Below are positions 5,338 to 46,482 of a DNA stretch of 64,000 bases, one piece after another (position 1 is the stretch's first letter; each line of letters starts with the position of its first letter). Below the pieces are notes generated by a model. It was not told the DNA's origin. It saw only the letters and a program-made list of their open reading frames with translations, and ran no database searches. Made by a program: the position numbers and the translations under genes. Source of the stretch: Eledone cirrhosa (lineage: Eukaryota). The stretch covers positions 416,826,001 through 416,890,000 of the forward strand of contig OZ024740.1 of the NCBI GenBank assembly GCA_964016885.1, given 5' to 3'.

Positions 5338-5349
5338 ATATATACATAT

Positions 5350-14687: not shown

Positions 14688-14774
14688 CTGTCTCTTTTCA
14701 CAGACTTTACCAAAATATGGTAACGTACACTGGCATTGATTTCCAATACAAGTCCCATGCCCACTGCACAATCG
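14688..14774 (-). CDS. Exon A3 (87 nt): RLCSGHGTCIGNQCQCTLPYFGKVCEKRQ; last exon found in the window
   Basis: Acceptor attttgcag, donor gtatgt. Paralog of A1 and A2. Confidence 0.9.
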
Positions 14775-15651
14775 CTGCAAAATATTGAAGACAATAATTT
14801 TATTAGAAGACCAAAGACATGGTTGTTAACACCTAACTTATAACGCAGACAGTTTTAATAATGATTCTAACATTTACACAAGGTTAAAAGTTATTAGTGA
14901 AGGTAATAGTTGATTGAATTGACTATAGTTAATGCCTACTAATTAATTCATTGATCCTGGGGAGTGGAGATTAACATTGATAGTAATGAATTTAAAATCA
15001 TTAAGTCTTGTGAGATTCCAGCTGACTGAACCTATACCCTATGGTCTTGATACCACTTCCAGCCTGGCTGCACATGTAAAACTTGACCATGAAGATTATA
15101 AAAGATTTTACAGGCAAAACTAACTGACAGAAGACTCAGGGGGTTGAGAAAATGGTTGGATAATATCCATGAGCTTCGCTGGTCTCACTTGAGTATCCAG
15201 CCAGATCATTTTACAACTGAAAAGTGTTTCTGGGAAAGGTTTCTTTTTATGGAAGAGCAGCAGTTGCCTATACATGCAAGTCTTTTATCTCCAAGCCTGA
15301 GGAAAATGCCAAAGGTTGATACAACCTGAAACCAGTGTTACCACAAGCATTTCTATCAGAACACAATAAGCTAAAACATATACTGCAAAGCATCTCATTT
15401 GATGCTAACAATGTTATCAAAATAAATCTCATTATCAACTACTCTTTACTAGTCTGGTCTAGTCTAGTCTCTTCTCATCCTCATTACTCTGGGTCAGAGA
15501 CCATGGACAATCTATATTTCCAAGACTCTAATCAGGGAAAAAGTTACATGGGTGTCTCCTGACCCCTCACATTACTCTGAAGCAGGCTACCATACAACAG
15601 CTCATCTGACATCATTACAAGGATGAAGCCATTGACAACTTTGAATATCAC

Positions 15652-16965
15652 TTAGCACTTTACATTACTCTATATGTACTATTGTATTTTTGTGGTAAAG
15701 GCTTTATCTTACGTAATATCTCACATAACATTTACATTACTCTATATATACTATTGTATTTTTGTGGTAAAGGCTTTATCTTACGTAACTATCTCACTTA
15801 ACACTTTACATTACTCTATATATACTATTGTATTTTTGTGGTAAAGGCTTTATCTCACATAATATCTCACATAACATTTACATTACTCTATATATACTAT
15901 TGTATTTTTGTGGTAAAGGCTTTATCTTACGTAACTATCTCACTTAACACTTTACATTACTCTATATATACTATTGCATTTTTTGTGGTAAAGGCTTTAC
16001 CTCACATAATATCTCACATAACATTTACATTACTCTATATATACTATTGTATTTTTGTGGTAAAGGCTTTATCTTACATAACTATCTCACTTAACACTTT
16101 ACATTACTCTATATATACTATTGTATTTTTGTGGTAAAGGCTTTATCTCATAATATCTCACATAACATTTACATTACTCTATATATACTATTGTATTTTT
16201 GTGGTAAAGGCTTTATCTCACATAATATCTCACATAACATTTACATTACTCTATATATACTATTGTATTTTTGTGGTAAAGGCTTTATCTTACGTAACTA
16301 TCTCACTTAACACTTTACATTACTCTATATATACTATTGTATTTTTGTGGTAAAGGCTTTATCTCACATAATATCTCACATAACATTTACATTACTCTAT
16401 ATATACTATTGTATTTTTGTGGTAAAGGCTTTATCTCACATAATATCTCACATAACATTTACATTACTCTATATATACTATTGTATTTTCATGGTAAAGG
16501 CTTTACCTCACATAATATCTCACATAAGATTTACATTACTCTATATTTACTATTGTATTTTCATGGTAAAGGCTTTATCTCACATAATATCTCACATAAC
16601 ATTTACATTACTCTATATATACTATTGTATTTTTGTGGTAAAGGCTTTATCTTACGTAACTATCTCACTTAACATTTACATTACTCTATATATACTATTG
16701 TATTTTTGTGGTAAAGGCTTTACCTCACATAATATCTCACTTAACACTTTACATTACTCTATATATACTATTGTATTTTTGTGGTAAAGACTTTATCTCA
16801 CATAATATCTCACATAACATTTACATTACTCAATATATACTATTGTATTTTTGTGGTAAAAGCTTTACCTCACATAATATCTCACTTAACACTTTACATT
16901 ACTCTATATATACTATTGTATTTTGGTGGTAAAGGCTTTATCTTACGTAACTATCTCACATAATA
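15652..16965. repeat. Minisatellite, 72-74 bp unit, about 18 copies, amplified from one end of a TTAA-flanked MITE whose remainder continues to 17104
   Basis: Unit acatttacattactctatatatactattgtatttttgtggtaaaggctttatctcacataatatctcacata matches the start of the MITE at 38581. Confidence 0.92.
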
Positions 16966-17337
16966 TCAAATCTATGTGATTTTGATATTCATTTTGAGAA
17001 GAATACCTTAACATAAATATGAACAGCCAGTTATAGCAGGTTTAAACAGAAAGAGGTAAGAGAATTCTGGCTGGATATAGCTGGTTTAAATGTTAAAGGG
17101 TTAAGTGACTAAAAACTCCAATCTAACCCAGTTCTGAAATCAGAGTGATCATTCTCCTAGACATACTGCCAACCAAGTCTAATGAGCTCTGTCTACCTGT
17201 ATTGGATGGTTGTTGATTCTCCTGAGTTCCTCCACCCTTTCACGAGTTTTGTGTTTCATCCCACAGTGTCCAAAAATAATCCTCCTCATCAAGCAAGTTT
17301 GATGGAGTTGCTGGTTTAGTCACCAATGACCCAACCT

Positions 17338-20300
17338 TGTGACAGGCTGTACTGGGTTATATGTTACCAGTAGACTGAAGAGTGACCTATGTGACAAGCT
17401 GTACTGGGTTATATGTTACCAATAGACTGAAGTGTGACCTATGTGACAGGCTGTACTGGGTTATATGTTACCAATAGACTGAAGAGTGACCTATGTGACA
17501 GGCTGTACTGGGTTACATGTTGCCAGTAGACTGAAGAGTAACCTATGTGACAGGCTGTACTGGGTTATATGTTACCAGTAGACTGAAGAGTAACCTATGT
17601 GACAGGCTGTACTGGGTTATATGTTACCAGTAGACTAAAGAGTGACCTATGTGACAAGCTGTACTGGGTTATATGTTACCAGTAGACTAAATAGTGACCT
17701 ATGTGACAGGCTGTACTGGGTTATATGTGACCAGTAGACGGAAGAGTGACCTATGTGACAGGCTGTACTGGATTATATGTTACCAGTAGACTGAAGAGTG
17801 ACCTATGTGACAGGCTGTAATGTGTTATATGTTACCAGTAGACTGAAGAGTAACCTATGTGACAGGCTGTACTGGAGTATATGTTACCAGTAGACTGAAG
17901 AGTGACCTATGTGACAAGCTGTAATGTGTTATATGTTACCAATAGACTGAAGAGTGACCTATGTGAGAGGCTGTACTGGGTTATATGTTACTAGTAGACT
18001 GAAGAGTATCCTATGTGACAGGCTGTACTGGGTTATATGTTACCAGTAAACTGAAGAGTAACCTATGTGACAAGCTGTATTGGGTTACATGTTACCAGTA
18101 GACTGAAGAGTGACCTATGTGACAAGCTGTACTGGGTTATATGTTACCAGTAGACTAAATAGTGACCTATGTGACAGGCTGTACTGGGTTATATGTTACT
18201 AGTAGACTGAAGAGTATCCTATGTGACAGGCTGTACTGGGTTATATGTTACCAGTAGACTGAAGAGTGACCTATGTGACAGGCTGTACTGGGTTATATGT
18301 TAACAGTAGACTGAAGAGTGACCTATGTGACAGGCTGTACTGGGTTATATGTTACCAGTAGACTGAGGAGTGACCTATGTGACAGACTGTACTGGGTTAT
18401 ATGTTACCAGTAGACTGAAGAGTAACGTATGTGACAGGCTGTACTGGGTTATATGTTACCAGTAGACTGAAGAGTGACCTATGTCATAGGCTGTACTGGG
18501 TTATATGTTACCAATAGACTGAAGAGTGACCTATGTGACAGGCTGTACTGGGTTATATGTTACCAGTAGACTGAAGAGTGGCCTATGTGACAGGCTGTAC
18601 TGGGTTATATGTTACCAGTAGACTGAAGAGTGACCTATGTCATAGGCTGTACTGGGTTATATGTTACCAATAGACTGAAGAGTGACCTATGTGACAGGCT
18701 GTACTGGGTTATATGTTACCAGTAGACTGAAGAGTGGCCTATGTGACAGGCTGTACTGGGTTATATGTTACCAATAGACTGAAGAGTGACCTATGTGACA
18801 AGCTGTACTGGGTTACATGTTACCAGTAGACTGAAGAGTGACCTATGTGACAAGCTGTACTGGGTTATATATTACCAGTAGACTAAAAAGTGACCTATGT
18901 GACAGGCTGTAGTGGGTTACATGTTACCAGTAGACTGAAGAGTAACCTATGTGACAGGCTGTCCTGGGTTATATGTTACCAGTAGACTGAAGAGTGACCT
19001 ATGTGACAGGCTGTACTGGGTTATATGTTACCAGTAGACTGAAGAGTGGCCTATGTGACAGGCTGTAGTGGGTTACATGTTACCAGTAGACTGAAGAGTA
19101 ACCTATGTGACAGGCTGTCCTGGGTTATATGTTACCAGTAGGCTGAAGAGTGACCTATGTGACAGGCTGTACTGGGTTATATATTACCAGTAGACTGAAG
19201 AGTGGTCTATGTGACAGGCTGTAGTGGGTTACATGTTACCAGTAGACTGAAGAGTAACCTATGTGACAGGCTGTCCTGGGTTATATATTACCAGTAGACT
19301 GAAGAGTAAGCTATGTGACAGGCTGTACTGGGTTATATGTTACCAGTAGACTGAAGAGTGACCTATGTGACAGGCTGTACTGGGTTATATGTTACCAGTA
19401 GACTGAAGAGTGACCTATGTGACAGGCTGTACTGGGTTATATATTACCAGTAGACTGAAGAGTGGTCTATGTGACAGGCTGTAGTGGGTTACATGTTACC
19501 AGTAGACTGAAGAGTAACATATGTGACAGGCTGTCCTGGGTTATATGTTACCAGTAGACTGAAGAGTGATCTATGTGACAGGCTGTCCTGGGTTATATAT
19601 TAACAGTAGACTGAAGAGTGGTCTATGTGACAGGCTGTAGTGGGTTACATGTTACCAGTAGACTGCCGAGTGACCTATGTGACAGGCTGTACTGGGTTAC
19701 ATGTTACCAGTAGACTGAAGAGTGGCCTATGTTACAGGCTGTACTGGGTTATATGTTACCATAGACTGAAGAGTGACCTATGTGACAGGCTGTACTGGGT
19801 TATATGTTACCAGTAGACTGAAGAGTGACCTATGTCATAGGCTGTACTGGGTTATATGTTACCAATAGACTGAAGAGTGACCTATGTGACAGGCTGTACT
19901 GGGTTATATGTTACCAGTAGACTGAAGAGTATCCTATGTGACAGGCTGTACTGGGTTATATGTTACCAGTGAACTGAAGGGTAACCTATGTGACAGGCTG
20001 TACTGGGTTACATGTTACCAGTAGACTGAAGAGTAACGTATGTGACAGGCTGTACTGGGTTATATGTTACCAGTAGACTGAAGAGTGACCTATGTGACAA
20101 GCTGTACTGGGTTATATGTTACCAGTAGACTCAAGAGTGGCCTATGTGACAGGCTGTACTGGGTTATATATTACCAGTAGACTGAAGAGTGGCCTATGTT
20201 ACAGGCTGTACTGGGTTATATGTTACCATAGACTGAAGAGTGACCTATGTGACAGGCTGTACTGGGTTACATGTTACCAGTAGACTGAAGAGTGACCTAT

Positions 20301-20805
20301 GTGACAGGCTGTACTGGGTTATATGTTACCAGTAGACTGAAGAGTGGCCTATGTTACAGGCTGTACTGGGTTATATGTTACCATAGACTGAAGAGTGACC
20401 TATGTGACAGGCTGTACTGGGTTACATGTTACCAGTAGACTGAAGAGTGACCTATGTGACAGGCTGTACTGGGTTATATGTTACCAGTAGACTGAAGAGT
20501 GGCCTATGCAACAGGCTGTACTGGGTTATATGTTACCAGTAGACTGAAGAGTGGCCTATGTGACAGGCTGTACTGGGTTATATGTTACCAGTAGACTGAA
20601 GAGTGGCCTATGTGACAGGCTGTACTGGGTTATATGTTACCAGTAGACTGAAGAGTGGCCTATGTGACAGGCTGTACTGGGTTATATGTTACCATAGACT
20701 GAAGAGTGGCCTATGTAACAGGCTGTACTGGGTTATATATTACCAGTAGACTGAAGAGTGGCCTATGTGACAGGCTGTACTGGGTTACATGTTACCAGTA
20801 GACTC
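17338..20805. repeat. Minisatellite, 52 bp unit, about 66 copies
   Basis: Unit gtgacaggctgtactgggttatatgttaccagtagactgaagagtgacctat. Confidence 0.97.
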
Positions 20806-20929
20806 ATCAGCGACCTGACTATATCTGTTCTCTTACCATATATGATATATATCCAAATATTTACCTATCAGTCATTTCTTCTGTCTATACAGTTAATAAT
20901 TAAAAATTAAGCCAGCATTAAGACATATG

Positions 20930-21030
20930 TCATCTGTTATACAACACATCTGTCATCTATTATAGAAGACATTTGTCATCTGTTGTACAAGACATCTGTC
21001 ATCTGTTATACAAGGCATCTGTCATCTGTA
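20930..21030. repeat. Short tandem repeat, about 20 bp unit (gacatctgtcatctgttata), about 5 copies
   Basis: Read directly from the sequence. Confidence 0.7.
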
Positions 21031-21354
21031 ATACTATTTTAATTTTAGAGTATACTTTGAAGCATAGAGTTATGTCCTTTTATGTCCTGAGTTCAAATCC
21101 TGCCGAGGTTAACTTTGCCTTTCCTCCTTACAGGGTTGATAAAACAAAGTACCCATAATGCATGGGGGTCATTGCTGGCCTTGTGTCAAAAGTAGAAACA
21201 ATTATTTTGATAACTTCTTATTTTGTTATATTATTTTCCCACATATAACTGCAATGATTCCGTCCCACTCTAACCAAATAGACTACATTGTTAGAAATAT
21301 ATTATCTCTAAAGTTGATACACAGAATATTTACTACTAACAATTCACCCCTTTC

Positions 21355-21583
21355 TTAACACTTTAGCATTTAAACCAACCATATCCAGCCAGAATTCTCT
21401 CACCTCTTTCTGTTTAAATTGGCTGTAACTGGCCACTCATACTGATGTTAAGGGATTATTCACAAAATAAATAATATCAAAATCTCATAGATTCGATATT
21501 ATGTGAGATAATTATGTGAGGTAAAGCCTTTACAGTGAAAATATAATAGTAAATATAGAGTAATGTGAATGCTAAAGGGTGAA
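21355..21583 (-). mobile_element. piggyBac-like non-autonomous MITE copy (family also at 33748-33962, 38581-38788, 15652-17104)
   Basis: About 210 bp shared sequence with termini TTAACCCTTTA(g/a)CATTTA...TAAATG(c/t)TAAAGGGTTAA. Confidence 0.7.
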
Positions 21584-21633
21584 ATAAAGAACTTCCTCAA
21601 CTTAAATAAAACGATGTTATAAATTCTACTTAC

Positions 21634-21743
21634 TCCATATTGTACAGCACAGTTTTCAGTACGAGGATCAATGTCACACGCTTTTCCAATATAAATCTGT
21701 TGACATTGACATTTGCCACATACACATCTCCCATGGTCTACAC
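21634..21743 (-). CDS. Exon E2 (110 nt): VDHGRCVCGKCQCQQIYIGKACDIDPRTENCAVQYG
   Basis: Acceptor atgtttcag, donor gtaagt. The spliced ICGGVDHGRCVCGKCQC resembles invertebrate integrin beta I-EGF3. Confidence 0.9.
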
Positions 21744-22379
21744 CTGAAACATATAAAATGTCTGATAATGCTTATACATTTTAGTTTTGCTAATTTTTCA
21801 ATTCAAATCCAATCCAATCCAGGTCGTTTTCACTCCTGTTGGTCTTCACTGCTTTCTGTTTGGTTTTGGTCATGTCAGGAGTGTGGTTATACTCACCTCA
21901 CATGGGTAATTGCAGGGTGTTGAGGCTATTTAACCCATAGTTGGTGTGGATAACTGTTGACTTAGAGGAATTCATCAGCCCTTTTAACAACTCTTTTTTG
22001 TGTGTGTGCTGTTAGGGTTCCACTTACCTACCTCACCAGACGTCTGGTGAGCAAGCCAGTTTAGTCACTGACCACTTAACTATGAAGCACATTGTACTGA
22101 CTTACGTGGCACCAGTAACAATTTTGTTTTATTTACAAATCTAGAATTAAATTTCCAATAAGATTTACTCAAATATAGGCTGATCTGAACCCCACTATTT
22201 TATGTCTGAGAAATGGGCAAAAATCCAAACCTTATTTACATAGAATTTGAAGTTGGTGAAAATCATCAAAATATTAACCCTGAATATAAGCACACACCCC
22301 TCCTTCTACCATTGATGTTTTTGGTCACATATACCTCGGCTTATATTTCAGTATATATGTATATATACATTAAAGTGGT

Positions 22380-25300
22380 CATGTAGGTGTCACGACAAAA
22401 ACCACCCAGTACACACTGTAAATGTGGTCGTGTAGGAGATACGACAAAAACCACCCAGTACACACTGTAAATGTGGTCGTGTAGGAGACACGACAAAAAC
22501 CACCCAGTACACACTGTAAATGTGGTCGTGTAGGAGACATGACAAAAACCACCCAGTACACACTGTAAATGTGGTCGTGTAGAAGACATGACAAAAAATA
22601 CCCAGTACACACTGTAAATGTGGTTGTGTAGAAGACATGACAAAAAGCACCCAGTACACACTGTAAATGTGGTCGTGTAGGAGACATGACAAAAACCATC
22701 CAGTCCACACTGTAAATGTGGTTGTGTAGAAGACATGACAAAAAGCACCCAGTACACTCTGTAAATGTGGTTGTGTAGAAGACATGACAAAAAGCACCCA
22801 GTACACACTGTAAATGTGGTTGTGTAGAAAACATGACAAAAACCACCCAGTACACACTGTAAATGTGGTTGTGTAGGAGACATGACAAAAACCACCCAGT
22901 ACACACTGTAAATGTGGTTGTGTAGGAGACACGACGAAAACCATCCAGTACACACTGTAAATGTGGTTGTGTAGGAGACATGACAAAAACCACCCAGTAC
23001 ACACTGTAAATGTGGTCGTGTAGGAGACATGACAAAAAACACCCAATCCACACTGTAAATGTGGTCGTGTAGGAGACATGACAAAAAGCACCCAGTACAC
23101 ACTGTAAATGTGGTCGTGTAGGAGACACGACAAAAACCACCCGGTACACACTGTAAATGTGGTCGTGTAGGAGACATGACAAAAGCACCCAGTCCACACT
23201 GTAAATGTCGTTGTGTAGAAGACATGACAAAAAGCACCCAGTACACACTGTAAATGTGGTTGTGTAGAAGACATGACAAAAAGCACCCAGTACACACTGT
23301 AAATGTGGTTGTGTAGAAGACATGACAAAAAGCACCCAGTCCACACTGTAAATGTGGTCGTGTAGAAGACATGACAAAAACCACCCAGTCCACACTGTAA
23401 ATGTGGTTGTGTAGAAGACATGACAAAAACCACCCAGTCCACACTGTAAATGTGGTTGTGTAGAAGACATGACAAAAACCACCCAGTCCACACTGTAAAT
23501 GTGGTTGTGTAGAAGACATGACAAAAAGCACCCAGTACACAATTGTAAATGCGGTTGTGTAGAAGACATGACAAAAACCACCCAGTCCACACTGTAAATG
23601 TGGTCATGTAGGAGACATGACAAAAAGCACCCAGTACACACTGTAAATGTGGTTGTGTAGAAAACATGACAAAAACCACCCAGTACACACTGTAAATGTG
23701 GTTGTGTAGGAGACATGACAAAAACCACCCAGTACACACTGTAAATGTGGTTGTGTAGGAGACACGACGAAAACCATCCAGTACACACTGTAAATGTGGT
23801 CGTGTAGGAGACATGACAAAAAACACCCAATCCAAACTGTAAATGTGGTCGTGTAGGAGACATGACAAAAAGCACCCAGTACACACTGTAAATGTGGTCG
23901 TGTAGGAGACACGACAAAAACCACCCGGTACACACTGTAAATGTGGTCGTGTAGGAGACATGACAAAAGCACCCAGTCCACACTGTAAATGTGGTCGTGT
24001 AGGAGACATGACAAAAAACACCCAATCCACACTGTAAATGTGGTCGTGTAGGAGACATGACAAAAAGCACCCAGTACACACTGTAAATGTGGTCGTGTAG
24101 GAGACACGACAAAAACCACCCGGTACACACTGTAAATGTGGTCGTGTAGGAGACATGACAAAAGCACCCAGTCCACACTGTAAATGTCGTTGTGTAGAAG
24201 ACATGACAAAAAGCACCCAGTACACACTGTAAATGTGGTTGTGTAGAAGACATGACAAAAAGCACCCAGTACACACTGTAAATGTGGTTGTGTAGAAGAC
24301 ATGACAAAAAGCACCCAGTCCACACTGTAAATGTGGTCGTGTAGAAGACATGACAAAAACCACCCAGTCCACACTGTAAATGTGGTTGTGTAGAAGACAT
24401 GACAAAAACCACCCAGTCCACACTGTAAATGTGGTTGTGTAGAAGATATGACAAAAACCACCCAGTCCACACTGTAAATGTGGTTGTGTAGAAGACATGA
24501 CAAAAAGCACCCAGTACACAATTGTAAATGCGGTTGTGTAGAAGACATGACAAAAACCACCCAGTACACACTGTAAATGTGGTTGTGTAGGAGACATGAC
24601 AAAAAGCACCCAGTACACACTGTAAATGTGGTTGTGTAGAAGATATGACAAAAACCACCCAGTCCACACTGTAAATGTGGTCGTGTAGAAGACATGACAA
24701 AAACCACCCAGTCCACACTGTAAATGTCGTTGTGTAGAAGACATGACAAAAAGCACCCAGTACACACTGTAAATGTGGTTGTGTAGGAGACATGACAAAA
24801 ACCACCCAGTACACACTGTAAATGTGGTCATGTAGGAGACATGACAAAAAGCACCCACTACACACTGTAAATGTGGTTGTGTAGAAGACATGACAAAAAC
24901 CACCCAGTCCACACTGTAAATGTGGTTGTGTAGAAGACATGACAAAAACCACCCAGTACACACTGTAAATGTGGTTGTGTAGGAGACATGACAAAAACCA
25001 CCCAGTACACACTGTAAATGTGGTCATGTAGGAGACATGACAAAAAGCATCCAGTGCACACTGTAAATGTGGTCATGTAGGAGACATGACAAAAAGCACC
25101 CAGTACACACTGTAAATGTGGTTGTGTAGAAGACATGACAAAAAGCACCCAGTACACACTGTAAATGAGGTCATGTAGGAGACATGACAAAAAGCACCCA
25201 GTACACACTGTAAATGTGGTTGTGTAGATGACATGCAAAAACCACCCAGTACACACTGTAAATGTGGTCATGTAGGAGACATGACAAAAAGCACCCAGTC

Positions 25301-25858
25301 CACACTGTAAATGTGGTTGTGTAGAAGACATGACAAAAACCACCCAGTCCACACTGTAAATGTGGTTGTGTAGGAGACATGACAAAAACCACCCACTACA
25401 CACTGTAAATGTGGTTGTGTAGAAGACATGACAAAAAGCACCCAGTACACACTGTAAATGTGGTCATGTAGGAGACACGACAAAAAGCACCCAGTACACA
25501 CTGTAAATGTGGTCATGTAGGAGACATGACAAAAAGCACCCAGTCCACACTGTAAATGTGGTTGTGTAGAAGACATGACAAAAACCACCCAGTCCACACT
25601 GTAAATGTGGTTGTGTAGAAGACATGACAAAAAGCACCCAGTACACACTGTAAATGTGGTCATGTAGGAGACACGACAAAAAGCACCCAGTACACACTGT
25701 AAATGTGGTTGTGTAGGAGACATGACAAAAACCACCCAGTACACACTGTAAATGTGGTCATGTAGGAAACATGACAAAAAGCACCCAGTACACACTTTAA
25801 ATGTGGTTGTGTAGAAGACATGACAAAAACCACCCAGTACACACTGTAAATGTGGTTG
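22380..25858. repeat. Minisatellite, 49 bp unit, about 70 copies, derived from the RTE/SINE 3' UTR
   Basis: Unit tgtaggagacatgacaaaaaccacccagtacacactgtaaatgtggtcg. The array runs directly into gttaggaaggacatcc...ttaaacgatgatgat (to about 26010). Confidence 0.95.
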
Positions 25859-26554: not shown

Positions 26555-26587
<33 letters not shown>

Positions 26588-27131: not shown

Positions 27132-27213
27132 CTCCACAAATCTTCCCATTAGAAGTAGGACAACTGGTATCATCACATTCACAATACATTCCGCTGTATG
27201 CTTTATTAGTCCC
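27132..27213 (-). CDS. Exon D2 (82 nt): GTNKAYSGMYCECDDTSCPTSNGKICG(G)
   Basis: Acceptor atttag, donor gtacat. Integrin beta CECD..C motif. Confidence 0.9.
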
Positions 27214-29719: not shown

Positions 29720-29789
29720 TGGTATTTTGTTGCAGCGGCAAAATCCCCGTGAACATCTACCTCTGTCTGAACAAATAACTGATGAGTTA
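29720..29789 (-). CDS. Exon C2 (70 nt): NSSVICSDRGRCSRGFCRCNKIP
   Basis: Acceptor ttttttcatag, donor gtaagt. Paralog of C1. Confidence 0.9.
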
Positions 29790-31429: not shown

Positions 31430-31467
31430 CTTACAATGCAGTGAGTGTTCAATCGATTTCTCACTAT
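31430..31467 (-). CDS. Exon B2 (38 nt): IVRNRLNTHCIV(S)
   Basis: Acceptor ttgttttccag, donor gtgagg. In frame between A2 and C2. Confidence 0.8.
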
Positions 31468-32975: not shown

Positions 32976-33062
32976 CTCTATCCTTTCACAGGTTCTACCA
33001 AAATATGGCGATTTACACTGGCACTGATTTCCTATACAGTTACCATGTCCATTGCAGAGTCG
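32976..33062 (-). CDS. Exon A2 (87 nt): RLCNGHGNCIGNQCQCKSPYFGRTCERIE
   Basis: Acceptor gttttttgcag, donor gtttgt. Paralog of A1 and A3. Confidence 0.9.
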
Positions 33063-35861: not shown

Positions 35862-35971
35862 TCCACTTGGTGAAAGACAGTTCTGAGTGCTTAAGCTAGT
35901 TTCACAGGCTTTCCCACTATATTGCTTATGGCAAGCACATTTACCACAATAACAGGCACCATGCTTAACAC
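35862..35971 (-). CDS. Exon E1 (110 nt, phase 1-0): VKHGACYCGKCACHKQYSGKACETSLSTQNCLSPSG
   Basis: Acceptor attttgcag, donor gtaagt. HGxCxCGxCxC I-EGF3 motif. Confidence 0.9.
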
Positions 35972-36789
35972 CTGCAAAATAAACCTCTTACATTTTAGAT
36001 TATATTTTCATTTTGGTTCAATATTTCTTTCTGTATTGTAATTTGTACTACCTTGTCAATTGAGAAACACATGGGGACTTATTAATTGTGACTTCGATTA
36101 CAACAATGAATATCTTAAACCTCTCCAGCTCTGTTGTCTTTCTGAAAAATGTGTGCACGTGTGCATTGATGTTCTCTCTCTTTCACTCACTGCCTCCGTC
36201 TCTCTCGCTCTCCCCATCTCTCACTATTATATTAGAGGGTTGGACACCATGCTTTGCAGCAAAGAGTTACGGCCCTTTATGGTCTGAGTTCAAATCCCTC
36301 CGAGGTTAACTTTGCCTTTCATCCTTAAGGAGTCGATAAAATAAAGTACCAGTAATACACTGGTTTAATTGCTGGCCTTGTGCCAAAAGTAGAAACAATT
36401 ATATGCAAATGAGGGCCCATGTGCTAGCCGCCCCTCAGTTCTAGCAGACAGAATAGAGAAGGTATTTCCCCGGAGGATGGTGAGAGAGATGCATTGGAAG
36501 AGCCATTCCAACTTGCGAAGCTTACACCTGCGAGTAGACAACTCAGTGTCGATGGTGGTGAGTGGGGAGGTGGTCCCTAGGGCCAAGAACACCAGTACTA
36601 AATTTAATTATTACTTAGTTTCTGCCACCCTCAGAGTCTTTCATCTCACCTTCTGTTATAGTTTCACATGTATGGATGACTGGAGAAATGTAGACAAAAA
36701 TATTCTTACATATATATTTTTGGCACAAGAGCAAATTGACAGAGAACATATGTGAGATGTAAGCATGCTACCCATTTGAGTACTGGACA

Positions 36790-37150
36790 AAAAGCATCTA
36801 GTCCACCTTGTAAATTGGTTGTGATGGTGACACATCAAAAAACGCTCAGTCCACCCTGTAAGGTAATCATGCTGGTGGTACAACAAAAAGTACCCAGTCC
36901 ACACTGTAAGAGGGTTGCGCTAATTGCACGACAAAAAGCGCTCAGTTCACCCTGTAAAGTGGTCATGCTGGTGGCATGAGAGAAAGCACCCTGTCCACCC
37001 TGTAAAGTGGTTGTGCTGGTGACACAACAAAAAGCACACAATTCAGCTTCTAAGGAGATCATACTAGTGGCACGACAAAAAGCACCCCGTTCACCCTGTA
37101 AAGTGGTCATGCTGGTGACATGACAAAAAGCACCCAGTCCACTCATGTAA
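36790..37150. repeat. Degenerate about 48 bp tandem array from the same RTE/SINE 3' UTR subrepeat
   Basis: Repeated acaaaaagcacccagtccaccctgtaaagtggt units, followed by gttaggaaggacatccagctgtag. Confidence 0.75.
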
Positions 37151-37254
37151 TAAGATTGATGTTAGGAAGGACATCCAGCTGTAGAAGCCAAGCTGCAAAA
37201 ATATAGACCCATATGAGAAAGACACTAGCATGAGTTAGATTTATATATATATAT

Positions 37255-37285
<31 letters not shown>

Positions 37286-37306
37286 CATATAACATATATA
37301 TATACA

Positions 37307-38008
37307 TAGCTTGCATCTTCCGATGGATGTTTAATAGTAACATACACAAACGGCAAAGCATAAACAAGTTGAGAGAGAGACTGAGCATAAGAGGAATCAA
37401 ATGCTGTGTAGGGGAGAGGAGGCTGCATTGGTATGGGCATGTGATGCGTATGAAGAATGACAGCTGCATAAAAAGTTGCAGAGCACTAGAAATCGATGCA
37501 AGCTACGGAGAGGGGAGACCCAAGAAGACCTGGGATGAGGTGATAAAAGCCGACCTTATTCAATTGCACCCCTCAAGGGCGATGACACATGACCGTGACC
37601 TCTGGCGTCACGCAGTAATACAGAAGACCCGACTTCCCACGGGTACAAGCCGAACCTGAAGTATATAGACAATATGCCCCCACCTCCTCCCACTGCAAAG
37701 TGGTCGTGGAAGTGCCACGGCAAAAAAAAGCCCACACTGTAAAGTGGACATGTAGGCACCACAGAAAAAAGCACCCAGCACTCACTGTAAAGTGGACATG
37801 TAGGTGCCACAGAAAAAAGCACCGAGCACTCACTGTAAATGAGGTTGGTGTTAGGAAGGGCATCCAGCTGTAGAAATCAAGCCCAAATCAGTTCCTGTAT
37901 GAGCAAGACAAGGTCAGCCGACTGGGCACTGCGCACAACAGGACAACCCGTCTAACCCATGCTAGCGTGGAAGAACAGATGTAAAACAGTGATGATGATG
38001 ATGATGAA
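37307..38008 (+). mobile_element. RTE LINE 3' fragment (subfamily of the 10251 copy)
   Basis: [34 protein letters not shown], then 3' UTR and (GAT)n tail. The 5' end abuts (TA)n. Confidence 0.9.
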
Positions 38009-38387
38009 GATATATATCATCATCATCATGTAACATCCATTTTTCCATGCTTGCAAGTGTTAAATGGGTTGTCATATTATGAGACAATTCAGGTCAAGAA
38101 ACTACATTATGCAAATACAGATCTGTATTTTGGCTTAGTTTCTACAACTAGATGCCCTGCCTAACACCAACCATATTACATGCACACACAAGCATACGCA
38201 GATATATATTGAATTAAAGAGAAAAACATAGCTGTGTGGTTAAGAATTTCACTCTACATTCACATGACTCAGGGTCAATACCATTTCACAGTTGCACAGT
38301 AACTTTGTAAACTTGTTTATAAGGGGAGCTTATAAATTGACCATATTGAAAGAGAAATAAGAAAGATATTGTTACCACATTATGTAC

Positions 38388-38469
38388 CTCCACAAATCTT
38401 CCCATTAGAAGTAGAACAACTGGTATCATCACATCCACAATACATTCCGCTGTATGCTTTATTAGTCCT
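38388..38469 (-). CDS. Exon D1 (82 nt, phase 0-1): RTNKAYSGMYCGCDDTSCSTSNGKICG(G)
   Basis: Acceptor tctag, donor gtacat. Matches the integrin beta YSGxxCECDxxxC...NGxICGG signature. Confidence 0.88.
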
Positions 38470-38580
38470 CTAGATTTAATATAAAAAATACAAATGTTTA
38501 GTAAAATTTCTTTTAGTAACAGTTGTCTAAAATTTAATGTAAAAAAACTAATATTTATAATTTTTTTAGTAAAACCTATT

Positions 38581-38788
38581 TTAACCCTTTAACATTTACA
38601 TTACTCTATATTTACTATTGTATTTTCACAGTAAAGGCTTTATTTCACATAATCATCTCACATAATATCGAATCTACAAGATTTTGATATTATTTATTTT
38701 GAGAAGAATACCTTAATATAAGTATGAGCAGCTGGTTATGACTGGTTTGAACAGAAAGAGATAAGAGAATTCTGGCCGGATACGGCGG
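38581..38788 (+). mobile_element. piggyBac-like MITE, intact unit
   Basis: ttaaccctttaacattta...tagatgctaaaaggttaa. Confidence 0.75.
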
Positions 38789-39092
38789 GTTTAGATGCTA
38801 AAAGGTTAATAGCATTCATGCAGTTTTTAAAATGATGGAACTCATCATTATTGTGACAACTGTTGAATATTCCTGACCAAGTCTCACCACAATTCACGAT
38901 TCTCCATTGCTCCTGACAACTGCTCCCTACTAAGGTTTGTAGCAATTCTGAAGAACACCAAACTAATGGGCACCAAGCCTTAAATATACAATGAAAGACT
39001 TTAATACTTAATATATAACAGCAACAATAGGTCATCAAAGACCAAGTCAGCGCTTAATCAGAGCTACCTCTCAGAAAAATTTATATATACAA

Positions 39093-39262
39093 TAATTGTT
39101 TCTACTTTTGGCACAAGGCCAGCAATTACCCAGTGCATTACTGGTACTTTATTTTATCGGCCCCGTAAGGATGAAAGACAAAGTTAATCTCGGCGGGATT
39201 TGAACTCAGATCATAAAGGGCCGTAACTCTATGCATCAAAGCTACCGATACTGCCAATCCAC
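39093..39262 (-). mobile_element. tRNA-derived SINE with Nin-like domain (copies also at about 730-820, 21080-21200, 30020-30205, 33365-33550, 36233-36400, 43430-43640, 46608-46890)
   Basis: Family has B-box gagttcaaatccc followed by gcctttcatccttacggggtcgataaaataaagtaccag and a 3' end ccttgtgccaaaagtagaaacaatt. Confidence 0.8.
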
Positions 39263-39534
39263 CTAATGGAAATTATTGTGTACAGTTATCAGGTGCACAT
39301 CAAAGGTGCATTTATAGTACACAGAATAATGTACAAATGTCAGGAAATGTCTTGCTCATATAGAACTGTTTCTGGCTTGGTTTCTACAGCTGGATGCCCT
39401 TCCTAATGACAACCACATTTACAGTGTGTGCTGGGTGATTTTTATTGTGGCACCAAGATGACAACTTTAGAGTGTGGGGTGGGCACATTTTGTGACACCT
39501 ACACGACCACTTTACAGCATATATAAGTATATAT

Positions 39535-39898
39535 CATCATCATCATCATCATTTCATTTTACGTCCGCTTTTTCCCTGCTTGCAAGGGTGGGACGGGAAC
39601 TGATTTTGCCTTGATTTCTACAGCTGGATGCCCTTCCTAACACCAACCTCATTTACACGGCAAAAAAGCACCCAGCACTCGCTGGCTGCTTTTTTGCCGT
39701 GGAACCTGCATGACCACTTTGCAGTGGAATGATATGGACCCCAGTCCCTATCATCTCATTTCTACAGCTGAGTAAACTGGAGTAATGTGAAATAAAGTGT
39801 CTTGCTCAAGGAAACAACACATCACCCGGTCTGAGAATTGAACTCACAACCTTTCGATTGCAAGGCCAATGCTCTAAACACTAAGCCATGTGCCTCCA
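39535..39898 (-). mobile_element. tRNA-headed SINE sharing its 3' end with the RTE LINE
   Basis: Head with A-box-like tggcttagtg and B-box gagttcaattc, then ccttgagcaagacact, then RTE-type gttaggaagggcatccagctgtagaaatcaag and (GAT)n. Confidence 0.8.
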
Positions 39899-40006
39899 TC
39901 TATATATATATAACCAAAAGTTAAACAAGGTTCATTGATTAATCAATGAATATAGTTTTACAATAGATTAGAAGCACTCAACAAAAAAAAAGTTTTCTGG
40001 AGTTAT

Positions 40007-40120
40007 TAATATTAATTCAAAATATTAATAAATATAGACATTGAAAGTAATCAAATATATATAATAAAATATATTTGATTACATGAATGTCTATATTTAT
40101 TAATATTTTGAATTAATATA
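40007..40120. repeat. Palindrome; the preceding sequence (about 39915-39990) resembles 3214-3295, which also precedes a palindrome
   Basis: atattaattcaaaatattaataaatatagacatt..gtaatcaaatatat versus atatatttgattac..aatgtctatatttattaatattttgaattaatat. Confidence 0.8.
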
Positions 40121-41435
40121 TATATATATATATATATACATACATACATACATACATACACACACTCATATATATATATATATATATACACATACATACA
40201 CACACTCATATACATATATATATATATACACATACATACACACACTCATATATATATATACGTAGCGGTTCTTGCAGGTGACTGCTAGACCCGGATGAAA
40301 CGAGGACGAAGAATTTCCTTGCGTACCGTTTTGTACCACAGATGCGATCTCACTCTGCCTCGTTAATGTTCAATCAACACCAAAGTTCTACGTTCTGGGC
40401 AATAGAATTGAATCCAACCACCGACAACATAGTTGGATGACCGATAATCAACCTAACCGGAGTACTGTGATCCTTGTGATTTCGAGATATACAACCACTG
40501 ATAGTGTAACGAAGACCAGAAAACCATACTCCATAATATTGAACCAAGTGATTGATTTGTGCGACCAAAATAACACCACACACATATTGAACTAGGAATA
40601 TTGGATCCTCCATCAATGTCCGGGTAAGCACAAATAGATTTCTATCTGCATTGAAATTTACGAACTTGTGCATCTGCTGTGGGGTCAAACACAAATGCAC
40701 ACGACCGCACAGATGAGCGATGGACTATGCCATGTGGGTTGAACTTGCAAGTGAATTGAAGGATGTGTAACTCTGATATACATATTATTTATTATTAAGA
40801 TGTATAAACTTGACACAACTATTATCATCTTATATTCTCTCAACTAATCACATTTGATTATATTTCTCTCTCCCGTTTTCTCCCCCCATATTTATAATAT
40901 TTTTATTTGACAAAATCTGTTTTTTTACATTGTGTTTTTCCCTTTCTAATACTTGCTTATAATTTTTATATATTCTCTATATATTTTTTATATATATTTT
41001 TTTATCTTTATTCTTATTTTCATTTTTATCCTCCTTTATATTTTATCTTATTCTTACTTTTATACCTTATTATAGCGTAATCTTCCCCATGCCTTATTAT
41101 ACATTATTAACTATAGATTATTATTACTCTTATTCCATTTCTAATTACCTCATGTACTTTCTCCTCCGTTATATATATATTTATGCCCTTTGTGTGTGTG
41201 TAGCCTCTGCACACCCTCTGCACCCTACTATCGATGTCACCCCATCTATGGCTCCACGAACCACTCGACTCCCGGGAATGAATATGACCACAGCTAGTAA
41301 ACAAGGACCCACACCCTACCCTCTCGCACCAAAATTAGACTTATTGTCCCCTGCTTTTGCTCTTTACTCTCTTTACTCTTTGTTCTTGAATGTTTGGTTG
41401 GTAGAGTCCATAACACCAATCAAACCCCTTTTATA

Positions 41436-41480
41436 GCTCTGAAGAATCCTACGGTTACGTAAGGAAGAAACATTGTAAGC
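41436..41480 (+). ncRNA. Minimal type I hammerhead-ribozyme-like motif followed by AATAAA
   Basis: GCU-CUGAAGA-A-UCCUACG guua CGU a AGGA-A-GAAA-CAUUG-UA-AGC. Confidence 0.6.
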
Positions 41481-41525
41481 CAATAAAAAATGTTTGATGT
41501 TGTGGACGCTCTTGTGTTCTTTATC

Positions 41526-41566
<41 letters not shown>

Positions 41567-41609
41567 CACACATACATACACACACTCATATATGTATATA
41601 TATATATAC

Positions 41610-42608
41610 AACTTAAAGAATGCCACAGTACTCAAATATGCAGATGACATCAAGCTGTACCTTGAGATAAAAAGGACAGATCCTGAACACTATAGATCTT
41701 GTCTACAATCAGACCTAGACACAATGCAACAATGGATCACAGACTGGCAACTCAAGCTGGCTGTGGACTAGTGCACCACCATGCATTTTGGGAGTAAAAG
41801 CCCAGCGTCCACATACTCCCTCCACAACACTAATATCAAGAAGTCTTCTTGAGAACGTGACCTGAGCATTATTGTCTACAGCAATTTGCGTTGGACGAAG
41901 CACGTCTCTAAAATTGTCAAGAAGGCCGAGAGTGTCTTAGCATCACTCAGCAAGACCTTTGTCAGCCGCTCTCTAGCTATTTATTTAAAGCTGTACATGG
42001 CTATGGTGCGGCCACACTTAGAATTTGCATCACCAGTCTGGAACCCCTATCTTGCTCAGAACATAGACCACCTGGAAACTGTCCAGAGACATGCAACCAA
42101 GCGAATACCCTCCATCAGGCAACTACCATACTCTGAACGCCTTGCTTCCCTGGGAATGGATACATTGAAGCTCCGACGTCTGGCAACTGACTTGGTAAAC
42201 ACCCACAAAATTATTAACCATCTTGCCAACAACAACCCTGAGTACCTTTTTGATTTCCATGTGTCTAACACACGTGGGCATGCCCACAAAGTCAGAAAAC
42301 AGCACAGTTCCCATGACTTTCGGAAACATTTTTTCATGCTCATAGTTGCTGAAGTATGGAACAAACTACTTGCATCGGTTGTTAGCTGTCGAGACACTGC
42401 ATCCTTTAAAACCTCCATGCTTCCTGAGATTTGCCAACATTACACCTAATATTCCCCCTCCATACACACGCACACATGTATATCATGACTCATACAATAT
42501 TCACTTCCCTGACATTTGTATATTATTCTATGTACTATACATGCACCTTTGATGAGTTGTAGTGCACCTGAGCACTTTACACAATAATTTCATTATTATT
42601 ATTATTAT
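41610..42608 (+). mobile_element. Degenerate 5'-truncated CR1/L2-group LINE
   Basis: KYADDIKLY..LQSDLD..W...WQL, LY..MVRPHLEFASPVWNPY, LETVQRHATK, TRGH..K, FF..V..WNKL. In-frame stops and an (ATT)n tail. Confidence 0.9.
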
Positions 42609-42630
42609 TTTATACATACATACATACACA

Positions 42631-42724
<94 letters not shown>

Positions 42725-42860
42725 GAAAGAGAGAGAGAGAGAAGAAAATTATTTTTAGTAATCATCATCATCACTGTTTTACATCCATTTTCCATGAGTG
42801 GTGATATAAAAAGTGTTTTACAAATTGCTTTATCAAATTTAATAGGAAATTAATACTTAC

Positions 42861-42930
42861 TGGTATATTATTGCAGTGACAATAACCTTGTTCACACTTG
42901 CCTCTGTTTGAGCAGATATCTGTTGTACCA
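42861..42930 (-). CDS. Exon C1 (70 nt, phase 2-0): GTTDICSNRGKCEQGYCHCNNIP
   Basis: Acceptor tttgctttag, donor gtaagt. ICSNRGxC motif typical of integrin beta I-EGF2. Confidence 0.9.
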
Positions 42931-44139
42931 CTAAAGCAAAATATAGAAATTAAAACTATAAAATGTAAAGACCACAGAGTTATTCACTATAAATTATTTG
43001 TTTTTATAAAATAACAGCCCTCTGTCCACACTGTAACGTGGTTGATGTTAGGAAGGGCATCTAGCTGTAGAAACCAAGCCAAAATACAGATCTATGTGAG
43101 GAAGATGTGGTTTCTGGACCTAACTTGTCTCATAATGTGACAAACCATCTAACCCATGCAAGTGTAGAAAATGGATGTTAAGCGATGATGATGAAATATA
43201 TTTAAAAATTATATTAAAAATTAAAAGATATATAAAAATGAATAAATAAAAATGTAATCATGGAAGAACTCTTTTAATCTTTCAAGAAAAATCAAAATTT
43301 ACTGTATAGATTCAAATATAAGCTGATATGGATATAAGCTGGCCCCACTATTTTATGTCTGAGAAATGAGCAAAAATCCAAACCTTATTTGCATAGAATT
43401 TGAAGTTGGTGAAAATTATCAAAATATTGGTTTCTGATTTAGCACAAGGTCAACAATTTTGGGGAGTAGGAAAGTTGATTAAAACCCCAGTACAATACTG
43501 GTACTTTATTTTATCAACCCTATAAGGATGAAAGGCAAAGCTAACCTTGTCAGGATTTGAACTTAGATCGTAAAGAGCCGTAACGCTATGCTATTAAGCA
43601 TGTTGCCCAATGCGCCACCAATACTGGCAATCCACTGCCCTCATGACTCCTGCTAAACCAACCAGTGAAATGAAAAACTTTCCAAATTTTGCAAACCGAA
43701 CGGGGACCGCCTACCTTCCCAATCTTGGCAAACCAAACACGTTTAAAGTTATAACTCACGCTTATCAATAGATCAATAAGTAATTACTAATAAAATGACA
43801 AGTCAGTCAATCATTGGTGGCCTGCCCGAAGCCCTGGTGGACAGAATGGAGAAGGCGTTTCCCTGAAGAATGGCAAGTGAGGATGGTGCTGGAAAGCCAT
43901 TCCAGCTCGCGAGGCTCACACCTGCGGCTGGCCAGCTCAGCGCCTATGGTGGTGAGTAGGGAAGTTATAACTAAAGAAAGAAGCAACCCAAAATAAACCA
44001 AATATTTAGGGAACTCAATAAATCCCCTGTTGTTTCTAAAGACTCTCCAATAATTTATTTTCAACAGATATAGTGGAATAGTGTCAGAGACCAGAGAAAT
44101 GTGGCAAAATATTTTGATATTTCATAATAAACAGTATGT

Positions 44140-44510
44140 ATAGATCTATAACTCCTGATAGAGTTGTAAAAGTTCTGTGGTGACATATTTCTGTATTTTA
44201 TAATAGACAATATATATAAATATAGACTCATAACTCCTGATGAAGTTGTAAGAGTTCTGTAGTGACATATTTGGGTATTTTATAATATGTAAGTATTAAG
44301 GACCTGTAACTCCTGATAGAGTCATAGGGGTGTTGTAATTACATACTTGAGCATTCCATAATAGATAGTATGTATGTATGGACCCATAACTCCTGATAGA
44401 ATTGTATGGATACTGTAGTGAGATGTTTAAAAGTCTAAAAAAAAGTCTAAAGTTTGTCTTAAGCTTGGAGGTTCATCAGTATGTATATAGGGATCAGTGA
44501 CTCCTAATGG
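44140..44510. repeat. Degenerate about 80 bp tandem repeat (ataactcctgatagagttgta...), about 5 copies
   Basis: The actcctgat/actcctaat core recurs at roughly 80 bp spacing. Confidence 0.6.
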
Positions 44511-44883
44511 GCATTTTAAACCTGGTGGAGCGATTCCTAGCCTGGTTTTGTGTTGTGTTCTTGAGCAGACCACTTCATTTCACATTGCTCTATTATACTC
44601 AGCTGAAAAAGAGTACCAATAACAATAGTGTTTAACTCTACAATGGACTGGCATCCTGTCCTGGGGGAAGTCTTGTACTCTCAGTAAGTTAATGTTATCG
44701 AAATTGGGATAAACACCGGCCTGATAAGCTTCTGGGTTTCGGATAGACTTTAGAAGTGCATCCCTCTCCAAGTCTGAACACAACTGATTTTTTCATAGAA
44801 GTTTTATTGATATCAATAATTTCTAAAAATAAAAGAAATAATTTATAATATAAAAAGATTATATTTATACCCGAGTTCCTTAC

Positions 44884-44921
44884 CTCTTGATGCAATGGAC
44901 ATTCAAATCTATGATGATCTC
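44884..44921 (-). CDS. Exon B1 (38 nt, phase 0-2): EIIIDLNVHCIK(S)
   Basis: Acceptor actttgcag, donor gtaagg. Joins A1 and C1 in frame. Paralog of the 38-nt exon at 31430 (shared LNxHCI). Confidence 0.8.
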
Positions 44922-45052
44922 CTGCAAAGTAAAATATTGTTTCTTTTGTAATATAGATCATTCCATGCAATATCTTATTAATAATGAAGTGATATAATAA
45001 AATATACAATGTATGGAAGCTGAATTTTCAAACTTTTAAGCACTGAGAATAT

Positions 45053-45382
45053 ATGGCTTAGTGGTTAGAGCATTGGCCTTGCAATCAAAAGGTTGTGAGT
45101 TCAATTCTCAGACCGGGTGATGTGTTGTTTCCTTGAGCAAGACACTTTATTTCACATTGCTCCAGTTTACTCAGCTGTAGAAATGAGATGATAGGGACTG
45201 GGGTCCATATCATTCCACTGCAAAGTGGTCGTGGAGGTGCCACGGCAAAAAAGCACCCAGCACTCACTGTAAATGAGGTTGGTGTTAGGAAGGGCATCCA
45301 GCTGTAGAAATCAAGCCAGAATCAGTTCCCGTCCCACCCTTGCAAGCAGGGAAAAACGGGACATGAAATGAAATGATGATGA
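45053..45382 (+). mobile_element. Same RTE-partner SINE (partial copy at 9915-10180; related heads at about 29560-29675, 30620-30740, 32190-32330)
   Basis: atggcttagtggttagagcattggccttgcaatcaaaaggttgtgagttcaattc...gttaggaagggcatccagctg...atgatgatgat. Confidence 0.8.
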
Positions 45383-46395
45383 TATATATTGTTATACTTG
45401 GGGAGGGTCATATTGTTAATATTGCCAGAAATAATAACTGAACACACTCACTGTTTGGTTGGTTTCCACTTCTGTATCTTTTATATCTCCATAGTTAATT
45501 TATTTGGCAATCAATGTTTATCATTGATTGGCCAGCGGTTAAAAATACAGATATAAATATATATATATATATAGTTTATCAAAGTTCTTCCGTTGCACAT
45601 CTGCAACATCATCAATGGTAGTATTATGTTTTCTCCTGTTGTATTGTATGTCTCCCATTTTTATTTTTATTTTTTTATTTATTTATTCTTGTTTCTGTCT
45701 CTGCTCATGTGTTTGCGTGTGTGTGTATAATGTTTGGTGTGTGTGTTCGCGTTTGAGTGTATGTGTTTTTGTTTTTGTATTCTATCATTGTTTACTAGTG
45801 TGTGTTTATATGTGTTTGTTGTTATTGTACTTGTGTATATATTTATTTATTTATTTATATTTCCCTTAAGTCAGTATTGTTTGTTTGGGTATGGTTGGTG
45901 TTGTTATTCCATTTGTTTTTTTCTGTTTAACTTCGGTCTTCTTAGTTCTATTTCAGTTGCTTCTCTGATTTTCCTACCTGTATAACAATATTTGTTTCAA
46001 CACACGATTTCATATCAAAAACCTTGCTATATATATATATATATATAATGTGTGAATATTAACTAACCCTGCTATTTTATGTCAGAGAAATGGGCAAAAA
46101 TCCAAACTTTCTTTACATAGAATTTAAAGTTGATCAAAATCATCAAAATATTGACCCTGAATATGAGCACCCTACCCTCTGTCAGTGATTTTTTTTATCA
46201 CATATTCCTTGGCTTATATTCAAGTATATATGGTTAGCTGGTATAAATCCTATAGTCAAGGGTAGGTCATCTTTGATCTTAAGTATACTCTATCAGGTCT
46301 AATCTGGTAATAAATAACAACAGAAGTGGTATGGAATAACATCCATCATCTGTGGATTTAAATTCAATAACCATTAATTTTTTTGATGTACTAAC

Positions 46396-46482
46396 CTCTC
46401 TTCTTTCACAGACTTTACCAGCAAATGGTGCATAACACTGGCATTTGTTTCTGATACATTTCCCACGACCGCTGCACAATTG
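46396..46482 (-). CDS. Exon A1 (87 nt, phase 0-0) of integrin-beta-like I-EGF repeat gene: QLCSGRGKCIRNKCQCYAPFAGKVCERRE
   Basis: Acceptor ttttattctggcag, donor gttagt. EGF cysteine pattern. Same length and phase as exons at 32976 and 14688. Confidence 0.9.

Follow-up and report, generated by a model that had tools for sequence, protein, structure and literature searches.

The window analysed here, 64,000 nucleotides of Eledone cirrhosa DNA (contig OZ024740.1, positions 416,826,001 to 416,890,000), sits as a whole inside one minus-strand gene of 37 exons and 214,784 bp (genome 416,991,672 to 416,776,889), which encodes an integrin-beta-derived protein lacking both the betaI domain and the membrane anchor. 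The model was built with 480 kb of flanking sequence beyond the window. All 36 introns are GT-AG, and the spliced frame of 2934 nt holds a single, terminal stop and encodes 977 amino acids, 132 of them cysteine. The protein reads, in order, signal peptide, PSI, hybrid, 16 I-EGF modules (EGF1 followed by five EGF2-3-4 units), beta-tail and stop. This anatomy of gene and protein is held with high confidence.

An earlier note on the window had described an integrin-beta-like gene with a tandem I-EGF cassette, and had offered two identities for it: an integrin beta with an elongated leg, or an expanded ITGBL1-like protein. It can be seen that the first part stood, for there is one gene, it derives from an integrin beta, and its I-EGF2-3-4 cassette is multiplied; neither of the two identities, however, fits exactly. 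Extension of the model into the flanks, as the note had suggested, revealed PSI and hybrid domains upstream and a beta-tail downstream, while betaI, membrane helix and cytoplasmic tail were not found. The absence of these three parts means that the product is no working beta subunit. Nor is it built like ITGBL1, which PMC7563769 describes as a signal peptide plus ten EGF modules only, for PSI, hybrid and beta-tail are retained.

Cassette exons within the window

The earlier note had predicted 11 minus-strand GT-AG exons with matching phases and an open frame of 861 nt. All 11 were recovered from the window sequence with AG/GT borders, and every border, size and phase was reproduced. Exon types A/B/C/D/E measure 87/38/70/82/110 nt, their phases (0-0, 0-2, 2-0, 0-1 and 1-0) all match, and the spliced 861 nt give a stop-free frame of 287 amino acids. 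The exons are listed in the order of transcription.

46396..46482, minus strand: exon A1, 87 nt, phase 0-0; latter half of module 4, which is of EGF4 type and lacks cysteines C1 and C5
44884..44921, minus strand: exon B1, 38 nt, phase 0-2; linker bearing cysteine C2 of the following EGF2-type module
42861..42930, minus strand: exon C1, 70 nt, phase 2-0; core of the EGF2-type module 5
38388..38469, minus strand: exon D1, 82 nt, phase 0-1; last part of module 5 and beginning of the eight-cysteine module 6
35862..35971, minus strand: exon E1, 110 nt, phase 1-0; module 6 and the beginning of module 7
32976..33062, minus strand: exon A2, 87 nt; Pfam EGF_2 above cut-off
31430..31467, minus strand: exon B2, 38 nt
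29720..29789, minus strand: exon C2, 70 nt; Pfam EGF_integrin, E 1.7e-5, below cut-off
27132..27213, minus strand: exon D2, 82 nt
21634..21743, minus strand: exon E2, 110 nt
14688..14774, minus strand: exon A3, 87 nt; then a 28.6-kb intron up to exon B3

Of the 16 modules in the leg, this portion takes in the latter half of module 4 and all of modules 5-10, which agrees with the previous count of at least 7 modules in the window. The short exon B1 has 8/12, 10/12 and 5/12 identical residues in three orthologs. In a chance control on the stretch 13001-46900, 9 real AG..GT open exons with the size and cysteine pattern of types A, C, D or E (B left out) were found, against 0 in 60 dinucleotide shuffles, the patterns being derived from the real exons themselves. 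A Toxin_2 Pfam match on exon C2, weak and below cut-off, was put down to a chance similarity of cysteines.

Cassette copies are 42-78% identical in DNA, and their introns are unrelated. Differences between copies are mostly silent, with a synonymous rate (dS) of 0.79-1.34 against a nonsynonymous rate (dN) of 0.30-0.34 (dN/dS about 0.25-0.38); the cassette exons are under purifying selection. The exception in identity is the pair D1/D2, at 96%. There, exon and about 58 nt of the next intron (38469-38330 and 27213-27074, about 140 bp) differ by 3 mismatches, a tract which looks like recent gene conversion.

The whole gene

Exons outside the window are given below in extended coordinates (genome position = 416,826,000 + value; the gene is on the minus strand).

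165672-165618, minus strand: signal-peptide exon
163994-163912 and 159498-159394, minus strand: the two PSI exons
157457-157394, 157128-157061 and 153859-153792, minus strand: hybrid exons H1, H2 and H3
152544-152490, 151649-151597 and 151099-151006, minus strand: hybrid exons H4, H5 and H6
149457-149324, minus strand: EGF1 exon
146689-146620, 145034-144953 and 143840-143731, minus strand: exons C0, D0 and E0
-13910, -19679, -24771 and -25664 (first bases), minus strand: cassette 3 exons B3, C3, D3 and E3
-30376, -31315, -36566, -37274, -38478 and -40582 (first bases), minus strand: exons A4, B4, C4, D4, E4 and A5
-42651 and -48661 (first bases), minus strand: beta-tail exons
-49098 to -49111, minus strand: last coding exon with the stop

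A first candidate for exon H2 (155463-155414) was rejected, as orthologs pointed to the exon at 157128-157061. The gene is apparently single-copy, since a search with the tail exon returned only itself and one canonical paralog.

Within the leg, eight cysteines occur in each of the five EGF3-type modules and in the first EGF2, and six in EGF1. The nine other modules (four EGF2-type and five EGF4-type) have six as well, with C1 and C5 both absent; in I-EGF modules these two cysteines form a disulfide with each other. There are ten six-cysteine modules in all when EGF1 is included, and the six-cysteine state of EGF1 also occurs in canonical betas. The mature chain contains 130 cysteines in a pattern compatible with full internal pairing, and 130 of the 132 cysteines of the precursor are retained in all three orthologs compared.

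The betaI domain is absent from the head

In canonical betas, some 200-230 betaI residues are inserted inside the hybrid domain. In the Eledone gene the two halves of the hybrid are directly joined, the 48-residue junction is gapless in 4/4 species, and the head aligns over its full length to three canonical betas from which betaI had been excised (E 1e-16 to 5e-20). A betaI profile gave no match in the 3.2-kb intron at the expected site and no more than 6.7 bits across 544 kb; as a positive control, it scored 46.7-110 bits at three paralog loci of the same genome. When the 3.0-Gb genome was searched with PF00362, 21 matches were obtained on contigs C2, C13, C19 and C26 and none on contig C1, which carries the gene; the canonical beta loci lie on contigs C2, C13, C19 (two) and C26. 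Furthermore, both PF00362 and PF08725 are absent from 3/3 scanned orthologs and present in the control, Octopus bimaculoides beta-PS (P0001). The betaI domain has been lost and a short turn stands in its place. The end of this turn, KDAHNRL, resembles the end of betaI in beta2 and beta7 (KNAYNKL and DAYNSL), and a remnant of the final betaI helix may persist there.

The domains at the two ends of the chain were recognised exon by exon. PF17205 matches the two PSI exons singly (E 3.5e-5 and 0.05) and PF07965 the two beta-tail exons (E 1.7e-5 and 0.022), all below cut-off; in both domains the cysteines align with those of canonical betas, and PSI has a fold match in addition. The head is basic in 4/4 species (lysine plus arginine 30-32, aspartate plus glutamate 10-13), against 27/21 in the control.

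For the N-terminal piece of the O. bimaculoides ortholog a fold model was made on an eight-row alignment which included three canonical betas. The predicted local distance difference test score (pLDDT) was 67 overall and mostly 80-90 over the hybrid strands; in the model the hybrid is a beta-sandwich, and a short turn, predicted with less certainty, occupies the site of betaI. Its top Foldseek match was the betaI-free beta2 leg fragment 5E6W (E 3.5e-27). VIA-align to beta3 2VDL_B gave Z 17.4 and a root mean square deviation of 2.8 A over 202 residues, with model residues 20-234 covering chain residues 1-461 and betaI skipped; for the predicted hybrid beta-sandwich and 4WK0_B the deviation was 2.4 A over 176 residues. 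By sequence alone, residues 28-334 match 5E6W 9-313 as one stretch (E 6e-37). These comparisons support the prediction of an integrin PSI-hybrid-EGF fold for the front part. No structure for it was present in the ESM Atlas; the feature matches there were EGF_integrin clusters, scoring 0.93 and 0.91 with the complete protein (recognition low) and below 0.9 with the head, which serve as leads only.

Three ESM Atlas clusters, two of 622 and 345 residues in chordates and one of 442 residues in nematodes, have EGF_integrin and I-EGF_1 and no PF00362 among their top three families; those of chordates and nematodes could be fragments or other headless betas. At C19:1.86-1.89 Mb and C13:41.59-41.63 Mb lie two divergent paralogs of canonical type with betaI, and in the C19 paralog the betaI start is poorly conserved relative to P0001.

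The chain ends before a membrane helix

The last tail exon ends in phase 1, and the exon to which it is spliced, 308 nt away, supplies the final tail cysteine, two more codons and the stop; AATAAA comes next. The corresponding exon of the C19 paralog, with a near-identical acceptor, codes for the membrane helix. Beyond residue 30, the best 19-residue hydropathy is 0.95-1.18 in the model and the orthologs versus 3.2 in the control, and 10/10 full-length ortholog sequences stop 2-6 residues past the last cysteine. Because there is a signal peptide and no later hydrophobic stretch, we infer that the product is secreted.

An unseen exon might still provide a membrane-anchored isoform, which would be a long dominant-negative beta chain at the cell surface. 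The last beta-tail exon does end in phase 1, as it does in the canonical paralog ahead of its membrane exon, and our scan reached only to extended coordinate -200,000. However, no fitting membrane exon was found in 151 kb downstream (94 kb of it satellite), and a genome search with PF08725 gave 5 matches, none of them on contig C1. Neither does the sequence past the stop contain a remnant of a membrane exon (score 44, shuffle mean 42). In addition, the terminal exon already has an acceptor of the same type as the paralog's membrane exon and then meets AATAAA, and the ten full-length orthologs all end at the same place. We consider such an isoform very improbable.

Orthologs and history of the cassettes

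A profile built from 16 exon translations gave 595 matches in a set of 1,192 candidates. The best 120 matches were examined, and sampling was thin for nautilus, squid, vampire squid, bivalve and chordate relatives. Three full-length orthologs were present among these best 120 of 595, namely Octopus vulgaris CAI9716324.1, Argonauta hians GAB1599227.1 and the Logan protein P0010; the others were mostly tenascins and unnamed EGF-repeat proteins, together with one distinct Mercenaria protein. The clusters of these proteins brought in O. sinensis XP_029637747.1 ('tenascin-X'), an O. bimaculoides ortholog split into a pair of models and, within the P0010 cluster, an incomplete Sepia pharaonis model; clustering with this model is the sole basis on which P0010 is assigned to cuttlefish. 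Identity to the Eledone protein is 75.5% for O. vulgaris, 75.5% for O. sinensis, 64.1% for Argonauta and 48% for the cuttlefish cluster. All ten full-length sequences have the same build, with no betaI, five cassettes and an early stop. The cassette count across cephalopods, which the earlier note had called for, is thereby five in 4/4 species.

In the databases the orthologs are named 'pat-3', 'tenascin-X' and 'ITGB1'. The tenascin identity suggested for O. sinensis was rejected, as no FN3 or fibrinogen Pfam family was found on three orthologs (the scanned P0005 shares a 90% cluster with the O. sinensis protein).

Seven of the ten members of the cuttlefish cluster are 983 residues long, with the whole frame on contigs of 3,593-3,972 nt, and the cuttlefish sequences were recovered on 50 and 61 contigs. 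Since frames of a gene with dozens of introns lie whole on 3.6-4.0 kb, these contigs imply spliced mRNA.

That the gene is a pseudogene, a mis-assembly or two adjacent genes is by now largely refuted, and its probability is negligible in our view. It is true that the O. bimaculoides ortholog is annotated as two models, XP_014791255.1 and XP_014791256.1 (379 and 604 residues), and that D1 and D2 are near-identical in the Eledone genome. The O. bimaculoides split, however, coincides with the 38-nt B1 exon, and in O. vulgaris, O. sinensis, Argonauta and the cuttlefish contigs the protein is one full-length model. The frame is also open across 37 exons, and dN/dS between cassettes has the low values given above.

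In an eight-row, midpoint-drawn tree that also contained three canonical betas and the Mercenaria protein, the four cephalopod proteins made up a clade of their own (100/99). In a tree of the cassettes, with 8 of 23 inner branches unresolved, cassette 1 groups across species (99/96) and cassette 5 is nearest the canonical leg. The octopod cassettes 2-4 join cassette 1 and are separate from cuttlefish cassettes 2-4. It suggests that either five ancestral cassettes were homogenised in each lineage, or the count of five was reached twice. Octopods and cuttlefish split about 270-300 million years ago. As to origin, an old beta paralog may have lost its betaI exons and acquired a stop where the membrane exon begins, and the phase-0-to-phase-0 cassette B-C-D-E-A would have been multiplied four times. 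A homolog search with exon E2 alone gave no candidate, and one with open reading frame fragments of the paralog loci was dominated by transposon matches.

According to the earlier note, novelty would be lost if orthologs with the same cassette number had been described. Such orthologs are already in databases, as automatic and misnamed models, while no paper describing them was found. This applies to the open-access literature, where six accession numbers also occur in no paper searched; subscription journals and supplements were outside its scope, and the gene could appear in a supplement table by one of its database names.

Comparison with known systems

In canonical integrin betas (such as O. 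bimaculoides beta-PS P0001 and human beta1, beta2, beta3 and beta7) the order of signal peptide, PSI, hybrid, I-EGF1-4 types and beta-tail is that of the cephalopod protein; identity is 35-37% across the common parts, and several intron positions are common with the C19 paralog. Unlike them, the cephalopod protein has no betaI (MIDAS vWA) domain, no membrane helix and no NPxY cytoplasmic tail, contains 16 modules instead of 4, has lost the C1-C5 pair in nine modules, and its gene carries extra introns at C|D and H5|H6.

The protein resembles ITGBL1/TIED of vertebrates, as portrayed in PMC7563769, in being a (here predicted) secreted I-EGF array derived from a beta integrin without betaI, membrane and cytoplasmic parts. 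It differs in having PSI, hybrid and beta-tail and a three-module unit repeated five times. No ITGBL1 sequence occurred among the best 120 of 595 matches, and the comparison is one of architecture.

Crystallised beta2 leg fragments (PDB 5E6W, 5E6V and 2P26) likewise have PSI-hybrid-I-EGF as a continuous chain without betaI. Judged by titles, lengths and numbering, these are fragments of a human protein, which we take to be engineered, whereas the cephalopod form is a natural full-length product. The truncated beta1 paralogs of zebrafish are natural betas without membrane and cytoplasmic parts, proposed in PMC1538996 as possible secreted antagonists; in contrast to the cephalopod protein they retain betaI (the A domain), in which the metal sites are altered, and have four EGF modules and no beta-tail.

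A mollusc protein with repeated I-EGF blocks and no PF00362 is the Mercenaria 'integrin beta-like protein 1' (XP_045172698.2, P0054). It differs from the cephalopod protein in several ways: its blocks number three and have almost complete cysteine sets, its tail is internal, it contains a PSI-like piece, and PSI-hybrid is missing from its N-terminus. It also falls outside the cephalopod clade. Molluscs may therefore have made betaI-less integrin-beta derivatives more than once.

Possible function

According to PMC1538996, betaI is the ligand-binding domain, and pairing with alpha depends critically on it. Since betaI is missing, no ligand-binding alpha-beta head and no metal-dependent ligand site would be expected to form, and a canonical alpha heterodimer is unlikely. 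As membrane helix and tail are absent, no signalling is expected. The hybrid domain would fold shut over the betaI gap, and the chain would form an extended rod of about 35-40 nm, as estimated from module lengths. The basic head might anchor the protein on acidic matrix or cell-surface sugars, and the leg modules might contact integrins or integrin partners. ITGBL1 is presented in PMC8921176 as a secreted inhibitor of integrin activation which promotes focal-adhesion release. By analogy, the cephalopod product may be a secreted disulfide-linked rod which damps or tunes integrin adhesion from the matrix side. We put this forward tentatively, giving it a little short of an even chance. A bolder version is doubtful: that coleoids independently invented an ITGBL1 of their own, whose fixed 16-module leg binds integrins or matrix ligands and sets adhesion strength in tissues parallel to those of vertebrates (cartilage, regenerating arms).

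Several points tell against the proposed function and the structure on which it builds. The parallel with ITGBL1 is an analogy, and the mechanism of ITGBL1 is itself called unclear in PMC7563769. Pfam reports no PSI or beta-tail on full-length orthologs, the matches being on single exons and below cut-offs. The full-length AlphaFold model is of low confidence (pLDDT 36), and the N-terminal model, given the alignment used, leans to the integrin fold and is not independent. The border of exon H2 needed correction by orthologs, and other small borders could be a few codons off. Net charge varies between species (+49, +57, +27 and +19, with +49 and +57 in octopods and +19 in cuttlefish), and RGD is present in 1/4 species only. 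Finally, the transcript evidence comes from cuttlefish contigs and none from Eledone cirrhosa itself.

With the same anatomy, the protein might instead be a structural element of the matrix, a rod or spacer comparable to the EGF arms of tenascin or to fibrillin; it would link cells or fibres by its end domains and have no effect on integrin activation. Sixteen tandem modules would suit such a spacer. Conservation is higher at the ends (25/28, 24/28 and 21/28 for the first PSI exon; 37/40, 35/40 and 27/40 for the first tail exon) than in exon E2 (21/37, 16/37 and 14/37). Both lineages have five cassettes though the middle copies are unpaired by position, which suggests selection for length. However, there is no oligomerisation helix and no free cysteine (130 cysteines, pairing-compatible), and RGD is not conserved. 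A spacer seems to us somewhat unlikely.

A role in defence or wound sealing, as a protein secreted into blood or mucus that attaches to microbes or haemocytes by its basic surface, would accord with the strongly basic octopod forms (+49, +57) and with the common recovery of the cuttlefish transcript (50 and 61 contigs). The cuttlefish form, however, is only +19, and the gene is apparently single-copy with strict cysteine conservation, in contrast to expanded immune families. Such a role is improbable.

Individual parts of the protein, and secreted beta derivatives (ITGBL1, zebrafish truncated beta1), were already known. What appears to be new is the combination of a PSI-hybrid closed over a deleted betaI, 16 modules, a beta-tail and no anchor, which was not found in the open-access literature. 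All integrin beta subunits are said, in PMC1538996, to have an identical domain structure. In an oyster survey (PMC7390872), betas were found via the betaI model and those without membrane helix were discarded; such a screen would miss a betaI-less, anchorless protein. The gene, kept in octopods and cuttlefish, is a natural counterpart of a betaI-free leg otherwise existing as a crystallography fragment. It would represent a second, apparently independent conversion of an integrin leg into a secreted protein, enabling a comparative test of ITGBL1-type action. If coleoids did invent their own ITGBL1, this would be the first natural protein to show that PSI-hybrid and beta-tail have a job of their own without betaI. 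Several database names are corrected as well.

Repeats around the gene

Three long satellites lie within or beside the gene.

46951..64000, on to extended 143,567: 37-bp satellite, about 2,600 copies, 96.6 kb, in the 97.2-kb E0-A1 intron
extended -143,722 to -49,522: 59-bp satellite, 94 kb, beginning about 400 nt past the stop
extended 184,635-235,106: 41-bp satellite, 50 kb, upstream of the gene

Minisatellites of 56 bp (13561-14556), 72 bp (15659-16963), 52 bp (17334-20804) and 49 bp (22371-25858) are present in introns; the 49-bp unit is similar to a repeat dispersed through the region. The A3-B3 intron contains an inverted pair of fragments resembling long interspersed nuclear elements (5348-6734 and 7395-8771), which are 89% identical over 1.4 kb.

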